5,039 bases of DNA from a virus (IMGVR_UViG_2724679238_000013), one strand, 5' to 3'; shown: positions 2,149 to 4,207, counted from the first letter of the stretch. The notes: generated by a model from the letters alone, not told the origin. Numbers and translations: made by a program.

Positions 2149-2750
2149 GCGAAATTAACTCTCAGGCACTGCGTGAAGCGGCAGAGCAGGCAATGCATGA
2201 CGACTGGGGATTTGATGCGGACCTTTTCCATGAGCTGGTAACACCATCGATTGTGCTGGCACTGCTGGATGAACGGGAAAGAAACCAGCAATACATCAAA
2301 CGCCGCGACCAGGAGAACGAGGAAATTGCGCTAACGGTAGGGAAGCTGCGTGTTGAGCTTGAGGAAGCAAAATCAAAACTCAACGAGCAGCGTGAGTATT
2401 ACGAAGGTGTTATCTCGGATGGGAGTAAACGTATTGCTGAACTGGAGAAAAGCGAAGAGCAACTCATTAACGAGCGTGACCATGCTGAGTCTGCTTTAGC
2501 TGATATGTACTTCGCAACAACCGGGGATAGGCCTGAGTGGAGTAACTGTTTCAGTTTTTCAGATGCTGTCGATGCCGTAGTTGACAGAATTGCTGATTTA
2601 GAAGCCAAACAGCCATCGCCAGTAGTACCGGAAGAAAAACCAATGCCTAACCCTCTTAGCATGTACACAGTTGATGCTGTTGCAGCTATTGCAGAGGTGA
2701 GAGGCTGGAACGCCTGCCGTGCAGCCATGCTTAAGGGAGATAAATCATGA
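2145..2750 (+). CDS. Ea22-like protein, 201 aa, coiled-coil-rich N-terminal half; start is GTG
   Basis: GTG at 2145 overlaps the upstream stop (GTGA) and has GAGAGG 6 nt upstream. The position just after the TraR-like gene corresponds to lambda ea22 by synteny. The central region is charged and heptad-like (ENEEIALTVGKLRVELEEAKSKLNEQREYYEG). The call rests on synteny and remembered lambda coordinates only. Confidence 0.5.
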   Translation: MSEINSQALREAAEQAMHDDWGFDADLFHELVTPSIVLALLDERERNQQYIKRRDQENEEIALTVGKLRVELEEAKSKLNEQREYYEGVISDGSKRIAELEKSEEQLINERDHAESALADMYFATTGDRPEWSNCFSFSDAVDAVVDRIADLEAKQPSPVVPEEKPMPNPLSMYTVDAVAAIAEVRGWNACRAAMLKGDKS

Positions 2751-3097
2751 TTAATCGAACCAAACTGGAGCACATCCTCGAGTATGCCAGGCAGCAGAGG
2801 CGCTTTGGCCAGCTTTGTAAAATTCTGCCAGGAGATATGGTTGAAATCGTGGAGATTGCCATGCGTAAGACTGGCAACTCTCCGGTAAGTCCGGGTGGTT
2901 GGATAAGCTGTAGTGAGCGAATGCCCGCTCAAGATGATTGGATTTTAATTTATTCAAAGCACGGTGAGTATATGGCAGGACAGGTACAAGAGGAATACGT
3001 GGAGTTGAGCGACGGCACTTTATCGTGGTTAGGGAACGCCTTGTACTGGATGCTGCTACCAGAACCGCCGCAGGGAGTGAATGATGAATTGGCCTGA
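2747..3097 (+). CDS. Hypothetical phage protein, 116 aa, with a DUF551-like motif (GGWISCSERMPAQDDWILIY)
   Basis: ATG at 2747 overlaps the upstream stop (ATGA), with AGGGAG 7 nt upstream. The W-I-S-x-x-E-R-M-P motif followed by a hydrophobic strand resembles DUF551 prophage proteins, from memory. Confidence 0.5.
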   Translation: MINRTKLEHILEYARQQRRFGQLCKILPGDMVEIVEIAMRKTGNSPVSPGGWISCSERMPAQDDWILIYSKHGEYMAGQVQEEYVELSDGTLSWLGNALYWMLLPEPPQGVNDELA

Positions 3098-3167
3098 AGC
3101 ATTCACCGCTGTAGGAGTTGCAATCGCGGTGGCATTTATTCTGTATTCGCTTTTCCGCTGGGGATAA
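3084..3167 (+). CDS. Candidate 27-aa single-TM micro-protein (MNWPEAFTAVGVAIAVAFILYSLFRWG)
   Basis: ATG at 3084 with AGGGAG (3072-3077) 6 nt upstream. It overlaps the last 14 nt of the upstream gene and ends 4 nt before the next gene's ATG. The peptide has a short polar N-terminus, a roughly 19-residue hydrophobic helix and an aromatic/basic C-terminus (FRWG). Below the ORF-track cutoff. Confidence 0.3.
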   Translation: MNWPEAFTAVGVAIAVAFILYSLFRWG

Positions 3168-3171
3168 AGGA

Positions 3172-3414
3172 ATGTTCGCTCTGATTCAACGTGGTCAGAT
3201 ATACACCGATAGCGCCGGCTACCCGATAAAAATTCTTCGCTGCATAAACAACACTGTGTTGTACAGAAGAATGGATGGGCGAACACAGTCGGTAAAAATA
3301 AACGATTTTAATGAACTGTTTGAACGGATCGATCACCAGGAATACCGACAAATTCTGGCTGAAACAGAGCAGGAGAACCATCTGAAAAAATTACGCGCCA
3401 TGCAAAGGAGATAA
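3172..3414 (+). CDS. Hypothetical phage protein, 80 aa (MFALIQRGQIYTDSAGYPIKILRC...)
   Basis: Open frame to TAA 3412-3414. The ATG at 3172 is preceded by GGGGATAAAGGA. The longer track ORF from 3118 would need a TTG start with no usable Shine-Dalgarno spacing and would overlap the candidate micro-ORF. Confidence 0.5.
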   Translation: MFALIQRGQIYTDSAGYPIKILRCINNTVLYRRMDGRTQSVKINDFNELFERIDHQEYRQILAETEQENHLKKLRAMQRR

Positions 3415-3532
3415 ACCGGTAAAGGTGTTCGCGATAAAGGTGAATATCGGCAATGAATAACAATCCTCGCACTCGCGGGGATTTCTTTTATCTGAACTCG
3501 CTACGGCGGGTTTTGTTTTATGGAGACAAGAA

Positions 3533-3877
3533 ATGTCAGATTTGGCTATGAAGGTTTTGAAATGGCAATCGACTGGCGATGTTGGCATCAGTAGCGCAAC
3601 TCTTGCCTCAATCGCATGTGGACTGAAAAAGAATATCTATGGTCATCACTTCGGCGCTCCACATGACGCAGCAGACTTCCGGCGATGCGTTGCACTTGTT
3701 GAGCAGATTCCAGAAATCAGAGATTCATTCGACAAGGTTGCAAAGCGCGTTCCGGCATTCAAAGGCATCCTCAACGAATGGGATTCCCTCGTCGCTCTGT
3801 TGAAGTCTGAAATGAAGATACACGGAAACAAAGCACCAGAGACTTACAGAAGAATTAGCGAGCTACGCAAGGACTAA
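3533..3877 (+). CDS. Hypothetical phage accessory protein, 114 aa
   Basis: ATG at 3533 with GGAGA 6 nt upstream. It is preceded by a 118-bp non-coding spacer and followed by a terminator-like hairpin, so it may be a separately regulated moron-like gene. I recognise no motif in it. Confidence 0.6.
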   Translation: MSDLAMKVLKWQSTGDVGISSATLASIACGLKKNIYGHHFGAPHDAADFRRCVALVEQIPEIRDSFDKVAKRVPAFKGILNEWDSLVALLKSEMKIHGNKAPETYRRISELRKD

Positions 3878-3958: not shown

Positions 3959-3995
3959 GCGTGTAATTGCGGAGACTTTGCGATGTACTTGACAC
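3957..3995 (+). promoter_or_regulatory. pI-like CII-activated int promoter region: TTGC-N6-TTGC direct repeat just upstream of and overlapping the xis start
   Basis: TTGC at 3957-3960 and TTGC at 3967-3970 are separated by 6 nt (TTGCgtgtaaTTGC), the lambda CII recognition pattern. The surrounding sequence matches the lambda pI/xis start region as I recall it. Confidence 0.45.
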
Positions 3996-4207
3996 TTCAG
4001 GAGTGGAACGCACGCCAGCGACGCCCAAGAAGCCTTGAAACAGTTCGTCGATGGGTACGCGAGTGCAGGATATTCCCTCCTCCGGTTAAGGATGGAAGAG
4101 AGTATCTGTTCCACGAATCAGCGGTAAAGGTTGACTTAAATCGACCAGTAACAGGTAGCCTTTTGAAGAGGATCAGAAATGACAATCACTCTTCATGCGT
4201 GGCTTGA
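3983..4207 (+). CDS. xis: Excisionase Xis, 74 aa, with a C-terminal tail that differs from lambda Xis
   Basis: The translation (MYLTLQEWNARQRRPRSLETVRRWVRECRIFPPPVKDGREYLFHESAVKVDLNRPVTG.LLKRIRN...) is recognised as lambda Xis over about 65 residues. GGAGAC lies 6 nt upstream. The 3' end overlaps the int start by 29 nt. The last residues (DNHSSCVA) differ from lambda (GKKAKS). Confidence 0.9.
   Translation: MYLTLQEWNARQRRPRSLETVRRWVRECRIFPPPVKDGREYLFHESAVKVDLNRPVTGSLLKRIRNDNHSSCVA

Follow-up and report, generated by a model that had tools for sequence, protein, structure and literature searches.

A conserved, unannotated micro-gene in the exo-xis region of lambdoid prophages, predicted to encode a 27-residue single-pass membrane peptide

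We analysed a 5,039-nucleotide stretch of viral DNA (IMGVR_UViG_2724679238_000013; hereafter the window) and find that positions 3084–3167 of its plus strand are probably a genuine gene, whose product would be a 27-residue single-pass inner-membrane accessory peptide that is expressed early and is proposed to act by helix–helix packing. The coding sequence comprises 27 codons and a TAA stop (3165–3167), and its product is MNWPEAFTAVGVAIAVAFILYSLFRWG. A Shine-Dalgarno-like AGGGAG (3072–3077, plus strand) is located 6 nt before the ATG, inside the last codons of the upstream DUF551 gene; this gene overlaps the micro-ORF by 14 nt, and only 4 nt separate the micro-ORF stop from the ATG of the downstream DUF4222 gene. 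The ORF with its start, stop and product, the ribosome-binding motif and the tight packing between the two neighbours are thus all as the preliminary description had given them. An alternative in-frame ATG (3081–3083, plus strand), directly after an in-frame TGA (3078–3080), would yield a 28-residue product, (M)MNWPEAFTAVGVAIAVAFILYSLFRWG. By alignment of the homologues, this ATG is limited to the MNWPEAF allele group, and the single ATG of all 27-residue homologues aligns with position 3084. Because of this alignment, and because ATG 3081 is only 3 nt from the Shine-Dalgarno site, which is a poor spacing, 3084 is the better start.

The window matches a prophage of E. coli O26:H11 strain 11368 at 100% identity and corresponds to the early-left arm of a lambdoid prophage, with all genes on the plus strand. 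A partial bet and then exo come first in gene order, followed by orf63/DUF1382 (1345–1536), an orf61-like gene (1613–1828), a TraR/DksA orf73-like gene (1927–2148), an Ea22-like gene (ending at 2750), the DUF551 gene as 5' neighbour of the micro-ORF (2747–3097; Pfam PF04448, E = 2.3e-9), the DUF4222 gene as its 3' neighbour (3172–3414; PF13973, E = 7e-16), a hypothetical gene (3533–3877), xis (3983–4207) and int (from 4179). Since the genes around it, from bet/exo through to xis/int, all share one strand, the micro-ORF would be transcribed within the early-left (pL) operon. This gene set is the 'exo-xis' region as described for lambda and Stx phages, in which the exo-xis/ea region affects host DNA replication, cell-cycle behaviour and the lysis–lysogeny decision (PMC10834534). 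A second hidden hydrophobic ORF of 27 residues is present at 1533–1616 of the window, between lambda orf63 and orf61.

Copies of the micro-ORF were gathered by nucleotide BLAST with the region, tblastn with the peptide, three peptide-pattern scans of IMG/VR and a degenerate DNA pattern run over GTDB species representatives, and about 330 related loci were considered in all. The length is exactly 27 codons in 254 of the 257 pattern-found copies, and no indel separates these 27-codon copies, which comprise 61 distinct coding sequences encoding 31 distinct peptides. Entropy at codon positions 1, 2 and 3 is 0.29, 0.20 and 0.68, respectively. A minimum spanning tree built from 69 distinct sequences carries 119 synonymous against 112 nonsynonymous changes, corresponding to a per-site nonsynonymous/synonymous ratio of 0.30 (binomial p = 4e-19); codons 7–24, which lie outside most search patterns, give a ratio of 0.35 (p = 1e-11), and the remaining two sense frames give ratios of 1.1–1.8. 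A further IMG/VR scan was anchored on the DUF4222 protein and provides a sample unbiased for the micro-ORF. In 65 of these 80 loci the 27-codon ORF is intact and its end lies exactly 4 nt from the DUF4222 ATG; its 15 distinct sequences show a ratio of 0.53 (p = 1e-3). Comparison at the sequence level demonstrates that the frame, the length, the Shine-Dalgarno-led start and the predicted hydrophobic character are maintained by purifying selection. The tblastn survey and synonymous test that the preliminary description had called for thus return a conserved frame, and its core claim of a genuine phage micro-gene is borne out by the conservation of frame and length, the third-position bias, the retained hydrophobicity and the Shine-Dalgarno site with start/stop overlap.

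The same unbiased sample contains one decayed allele in 14 of its 80 loci, with DUF4222 intact behind it and 7 different upstream genes. In this allele, a 1-nt deletion after ATGATG is combined with the internal loss of about 25 nt, and what remains is MMLGLKYFM followed by a stop codon. In addition, two singletons are disrupted, by a W3-to-stop change in POCJ13 and by a 1-nt deletion causing a frameshift in L305. The decayed allele and the singletons indicate that the gene is not required and is accessory, such that it can be lost. The preliminary description had held that tolerance of frame-breaking indels in homologous regions would speak against a coding role; such lesions do occur, in the minority of loci given here, and they mark the gene as dispensable, not as non-coding.

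Hydropathy and Hessa ΔG place a predicted transmembrane core at codons 6–24 (AFTAVGVAIAVAFILYSLF; 3099–3155, plus strand), with a mean Kyte–Doolittle hydropathy of 2.28 and a summed Hessa ΔG of −0.9 kcal/mol. These 19 residues are hydrophobic and long enough to span a membrane, and the micro-ORF ranks second in hydropathy among the 54 ORFs of 20–45 residues in the window. This predicted core, with its slightly negative Hessa sum, agrees with the hydrophobic helix proposed earlier for this peptide. The 35 peptide variants all keep a hydrophobic character; among nine representative variants scored, core hydropathy is 1.9–2.8 in eight and 1.4 in the ninth, a K8/E9 variant. The family consensus is M-[TSN]-W-P-[ED]-A-F-x-T-V-G-x-x-x-A-x-A-[LF]-x-V-Y-S-I-C-R-W-G, in which none of the 35 peptide variants departs from W3, G11 or W26, each has A or S at position 15, and P4, A6, A/S15, A17, S22, I23, C24 and R25 are nearly invariant; the nonsynonymous changes among the variants are conservative. 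W–P and R–W pairs, here W3–P4 and R25–W26, are typical interfacial anchors. The conserved small-residue motif G11-xxx-A15 (3114–3128, plus strand) lies within the core, and a GxxxA-type small-residue face is a motif used in transmembrane helix–helix packing. Furthermore, the positive-inside rule leads one to expect a basic residue at the cytoplasmic side, and the N-terminus with E/D5 may face outward and R25–W26 the cytoplasm, an orientation predicted weakly from a single Arg.

We then asked how existing resources treat the micro-ORF. RefSeq has no call for it in the 100%-identical O26:H11 11368 prophage, and none of 17 phage GenBank/RefSeq regions calls it, including those of BP-4795, VT1-Sakai, JLK-2012, 933W and Stx2 II. 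For the 1600 matched E. coli RefSeq records, the sampled rows show an overlapping upstream gene under the match, or nothing. An exact peptide look-up over 5.8 billion protein clusters (about 15 billion proteins) returned no more than a few GenBank 'hypothetical protein' entries (for example, ETI78407.1 and ASL58468.1), and a homology search with P0004, a 45-residue cluster member, returned only three called proteins or clusters. The expectation that standard annotation would miss this ORF is therefore upheld, apart from these few hypothetical entries. One RefSeq protein, WP_249540521.1, appears to be a natural fusion with the upstream protein, and reflects a 1-nt frameshift artefact or mutation instead of a designed fusion. 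The peptide strings are absent from the searchable full-text literature and from the supplements of the ribosome-profiling paper on E. coli O157:H7 Sakai, and the micro-ORF is not mentioned in the exo-xis literature examined.

Profile searches of the micro-peptide against Pfam, NCBIfam, PADLOC and the PDB gave nothing above threshold. The sole PHROG family with matches is phrog_4612 (function unassigned), which matched 6 of 25 peptide variants with a best E of 1e-3 by aligning peptide residues 1–23 with profile positions 33–54 of 57; we rejected membership, as the match is marginal, the window allele itself has no match and the profile is twice as long as the peptide. Judged by its predicted features, the micro-peptide is a member of an undescribed family and resembles a known class of small single-pass membrane proteins. 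This class includes AcrZ, MgtS, KdpF and CydX of E. coli and MgtR and PmrR of Salmonella, all small inner-membrane modulators, with which it shares a length below 50 residues, one hydrophobic helix with aromatic or charged flanks and a small-residue face, its own Shine-Dalgarno site and start codon, and a routine lack of annotation. Unlike these proteins, to which it has no sequence similarity, the micro-peptide is phage-borne and mobile, whereas they are encoded in the chromosome beside their targets.

The signals for expression are similarly consistent across loci. Only a handful of 113 distinct contexts lack an overlap or direct contact between the upstream stop and the micro-ORF start; the two overlap in an ATGA in 75, the stop ends at the A of the start ATG in 21, and a 14-nt overlap is present in 15. 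In the great majority of these contexts a GGAGG/GGGAG-type motif precedes the ATG by 6–9 nt, with a few weaker variants, and this GGAGG-like motif sits within the last codons of the upstream gene. A stop/start overlap with an embedded Shine-Dalgarno site is the classic arrangement for translational coupling, and the micro-ORF would be translated by coupling to the Ea22/EaA/DUF551-type gene before it, given the overlap of that gene's stop with the micro-ORF start. A consensus scan of 2600–3600 revealed neither a sigma-70-like promoter (both strands scanned) nor a minus-strand terminator-like site, no Rfam match was obtained in the window (E ≤ 1), and no unusually stable fold was found, with z = +1.3 for the plus strand (less stable than shuffled sequence) and z = −0.35 for the minus strand. 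With no promoter, Rfam match or stable fold, expression is most likely from the early-left polycistronic transcript. The lack of an Rfam match and of a stable fold also led us to reject a structured RNA or sRNA as the conserved element. The preliminary description had advised a check for an antisense small RNA, and this check yielded no minus-strand promoter, terminator, Rfam or fold signal; a novel sRNA with a non-consensus promoter may nevertheless exist.

Taken together, the preferred reading is that the peptide would insert into the inner membrane, with a predicted N-out/C-in topology, and that its small-residue face (G11-xxx-A/S15, A17, S22) would pack against another transmembrane helix, either its own in an oligomer or that of a host inner-membrane protein, such that host membrane physiology may be modulated early in infection or induction. 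The invariant G11 together with the small-residue face formed by A/S15, A17 and S22 makes a helix-binding peptide likelier in our view than a detergent-like toxin.

The preliminary description had listed type I toxin-like, holin-like, superinfection-exclusion and membrane-modulating functions, of which the first two are argued against by the absence of an antisense signal and of a lysis cassette, respectively. A holin is rejected, as the micro-ORF resides between the DUF551 and DUF4222 genes of the early-left exo-xis/ea region and not in a lysis cassette, its location in other phages is alike, and the micro-peptide has no holin match in Pfam, NCBIfam or PHROG. A membrane-damaging toxin of type I-like character, depolarising or pore-forming, which would kill or arrest the host in an addiction or abortive function, is unlikely. 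The small hydrophobic peptide of 27 residues and core hydropathy 2.28 would suit such a role, and TisB, DinQ, ShoB, Ibs and Hok-class toxins are hydrophobic single helices of similar size. Moreover, about 20 contexts have a hok/mok/sok locus some 153 nt downstream, hokW of 933W among them. However, this adjacency is one of at least five downstream contexts, and the searches gave no minus-strand promoter-like or terminator-like site in 2600–3600, no Rfam match in the window and no unusually stable fold on either strand. In type I toxins the ribosome-binding site is sequestered and a dedicated promoter is present, whereas the Shine-Dalgarno site of the micro-ORF is exposed, its start would be coupled to an upstream gene that is constitutively co-translated with it, and no promoter of its own was found. 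Thus, the micro-ORF shares with the type I toxins (Hok/Gef, TisB, DinQ, ShoB, Ibs, Ldr and ZorO) its size, its single hydrophobic helix and a location that for them, too, is often in prophages, but it differs from them in having no antisense RNA signal, promoter of its own, structured leader or sequence similarity.

The distribution of the micro-ORF is wide and patchy. Of 5426 complete E. coli genomes, 1560 have at least one copy and some have as many as 7, and the micro-ORF occurs in 95 phage records, including 933W, VT1-Sakai, VT2-Sakai, BP-4795, Min27, P1-like phages and Av-05. It is also present in 180 plasmids (Escherichia, 154; Salmonella, 25; Klebsiella, 1), most of which have a size of about 95 kb, are non-mobilisable and are hence P1-like. 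A search of the GTDB species representatives with the strict pattern gave matches in Escherichia and Shigella only, plus two tiny contigs; these matches, in Xanthomonas and Acinetobacter, are on contigs below 450 bp and look like contamination. The yfdS (DUF551) region of CPS-53 in K-12 lacks the micro-ORF, and K-12 ribosome-profiling data are accordingly not expected to cover it at CPS-53. Small phage membrane proteins are often involved in superinfection exclusion, and the patchy distribution, the dispensability and the location in an accessory, moron-rich region near int/xis would fit a prophage-made factor that blocks DNA entry or the development of incoming phages. Against such an exclusion or defence factor, which we consider quite improbable, stand the lack of a promoter of its own in the sigma-70 consensus scan, the position inside an early-left operon that, by its gene order, would be repressed in the lysogen, the absence of a PADLOC match, and the occurrence of the micro-ORF in Av-05, a lytic Vequintavirinae phage.

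Our comparison of the 113 contexts further reveals that the surroundings of the micro-ORF vary extensively. On the upstream side, the partners are Ea22/EaA/DUF551-type proteins of highly mosaic make-up, among which at least six unrelated C-termini occur (…LPEPPQEVNQ, …GLISVEDILR, …LKNIEQEVNQ, …VIAGIGVEVK, …GQAVWRLEVR and …AMLKKKGMNQ). Downstream, at least five kinds of context are found: DUF4222 at +4 nt in about 38 of the 113, a 77-residue acidic ORF at +2 nt in about 19 (P1-like contigs of about 95 kb), the hok/mok/sok locus mentioned above, a convergent toxin–antitoxin pair in ArgO145, and a hairpin resembling an intrinsic terminator in L016 and L098. The window allele is 96% identical to the BP-4795 and VT1-Sakai alleles, while its flanks are 50–60% and 68–75% identical, and the micro-ORF is intact in L008 and L017, where DUF4222 is a pseudogene. 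These alignments establish the micro-ORF as a unit that, judged from sequence relationships, travels independently, as a mosaic module of its own, among the hypervariable ea/exo-xis regions of lambdoid (including Stx) prophages, P1-like phage-plasmids and a lytic Vequintavirinae phage. Guilt by association yielded nothing, with both upstream and downstream partners heterogeneous and unannotated; as no neighbour gene is constant, the context gives no clue to function.

A module that sits exactly at mosaic junctions and is better conserved than both flanks could also be an untranslated boundary or linker for recombination between mosaic modules, or could reflect a gene on the antisense strand. 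Of 58 variants, 55 leave antisense frame 1 open, and the antisense frame with the same wobble positions as the sense frame has a nonsynonymous/synonymous ratio of 0.29, as low as that of the sense frame, so that the ratio alone does not fix the strand. What assigns the gene to the plus strand is the constancy of its ATG and of its stop, together with the Shine-Dalgarno site and the direction of the operon. The three-base periodicity of substitutions and the absence of indels in 61 sequences likewise argue for plus-strand coding and render an untranslated element highly improbable. For an antisense gene, no start covers the region in 81 of 110 contexts, the ORF length ranges from 0 to 168 residues, and the neighbouring genes are all on the plus strand; it is ruled out by this inconsistent start and extent despite the low ratio.

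The idea that ribosomes merely pass through the micro-ORF to initiate DUF4222, the peptide being functionless, could appeal to the 14-nt and 4-nt spacings and to the conserved 3' end CGCTGGGGATAA, which gives a GGGGA Shine-Dalgarno-like element for DUF4222, but it is largely refuted by the context data and retains hardly any probability, since about two thirds of contexts lack DUF4222, the peptide is still conserved before the terminator-like hairpins or the convergent gene, DUF4222 is intact behind the decayed allele, and amino-acid-level purifying selection with retained hydrophobicity is not expected of a bridge. The diversity of contexts and the independence from the flanks instead indicate that the micro-ORF is more than a leader for DUF4222 and that selection acts on the peptide itself.

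The accessory membrane peptide that we favour has implications for the region in which it is encoded. It directly follows the ea22/DUF551-type genes of the exo-xis/ea set and shares with the genes of this set (orf60a, orf63, orf61, orf73, ea22 and ea8.5) its region, strand, early-left operon, mosaic character and dispensability. By comparison, the products of these genes are soluble, have predicted or solved folds and have been studied, whereas that of the micro-ORF is a predicted membrane peptide. The exo-xis phenotypes have so far been assigned to annotated ORFs only, and the deletions or clones published for 'ea22' variants may have affected the micro-ORF as well, by removing it or carrying it along. 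About 29% of complete E. coli genomes, including major EHEC lineages, carry this gene missed by annotation pipelines, and it represents a compact candidate for a phage peptide that interacts with a host membrane protein in a new way. Even if it is only a dispensable accessory peptide, its recognition is a useful correction to annotation. We also put forward, as a tentative and rather doubtful extension, that the micro-peptide is the founding member of a widespread and so far undescribed family of membrane micro-proteins made early by phages; carried by Stx-converting phages such as 933W and Sakai VT1/VT2, it would bind a specific host inner-membrane protein through G11-xxx-A15 and thereby measurably shift host physiology or the lysis–lysogeny decision, and so Stx phage induction, with the ORF at 1533–1616 as a second example. 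If this is true, the long-studied exo-xis region would encode membrane-active products that were overlooked by all previous genetic studies.

The 3' side of the micro-ORF, the 27-codon reading frame for a predicted single-pass membrane peptide between the DUF551 and DUF4222 genes, is occupied by different neighbours in related loci. In phage 933W (L011, AF125520.1 58460–58909), a hok/mok/sok type I toxin–antitoxin locus starts approximately 153 nt beyond the stop codon of the micro-ORF, and about 20 further contexts, such as L340, have the same locus at this distance. The toxin–antitoxin locus is named hokW/sokW, or hokD in the annotation of L340, and the boundary between the micro-ORF and hok/mok/sok is a recurrent module junction. 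Where DUF4222 follows, it is frameshifted or truncated in L008 (Stx2a_1447, AP012536.1), in which it is annotated as a pseudogene, and in the IMG/VR locus L017, with the adjoining upstream micro-ORF intact in both.

Inactivated copies of the micro-ORF are also observed, as is one fused to the upstream gene. In the IMG/VR loci L264–L276, a decayed allele lies upstream of DUF4222 at about 600–700 in locus coordinates, where the loss of 1 nt after ATGATG and of an internal stretch of approximately 25 nt leaves a 9-aa remnant. This allele is present in 14 of the 80 loci gathered through the neighbouring DUF4222 protein. Its junction with seven different upstream genes shows that the dead copy has been spread by recombination. 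In Shigella phage POCJ13 (L013, KJ603229.1, locus 901–981), codon 3 is changed from TGG to the nonsense codon TAG, and the record instead annotates two antisense 'hypothetical proteins' over the micro-ORF region. In E. coli strain 317 (L339, NZ_CP023357.1, locus 75–785), the RefSeq CDS WP_249540521.1 is a 236-aa fusion, in which an Ea22-like gene has lost one nucleotide close to its end, so that the frame runs on into the micro-ORF; as a result of this frameshift, its C-terminus reads MTWPEAFTTVGIAMAVALVVYSICRWG.

Elsewhere in the window, a second hidden hydrophobic micro-ORF (1533–1616, + strand; 27 aa, MTTTECIFLAAGFIFCVLMLADMGLVQ) has the top hydropathy among all short ORFs. Its ATG overlaps the stop of the orf63/DUF1382 gene in a shared ATGA, and its TGA overlaps the ATG of the orf61-like gene at 1613. 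By tblastn, this micro-ORF is present in 175 phage records, phage lambda itself among them, all with at least 92.6% identity. It is almost never annotated in these records; its counterpart in phage 21 (OL657228.1) carries the label 'putative membrane protein'. Between the DUF4222 gene and the 3533–3877 gene, a tandem pair of hairpins on the + strand (3462–3483 and 3494–3513), each followed by a T-run, resembles intrinsic terminators and falls within the presumed antiterminated early-left operon.

Copies of the E. coli phage type of the DUF551–DUF4222 micro-ORF occur on very short contigs of two non-enterobacterial assemblies, Xanthomonas pisi DSM 18956 (L099, a 431-bp contig) and Acinetobacter idrijaensis MII (L102, a 369-bp contig). 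The L099 copy encodes the same peptide as 933W within near-identical flanks, and both copies are most likely assembly contamination. The lytic Vequintavirinae phages Av-05 and 24-2-1 (L014 and L015; ~120 kb) contain the module of Ea22-like gene and micro-ORF, and the 65–69-aa ORF behind it overlaps the stop of the micro-ORF. The presence of this module in lytic phages shows that temperate and virulent coliphages have exchanged it.
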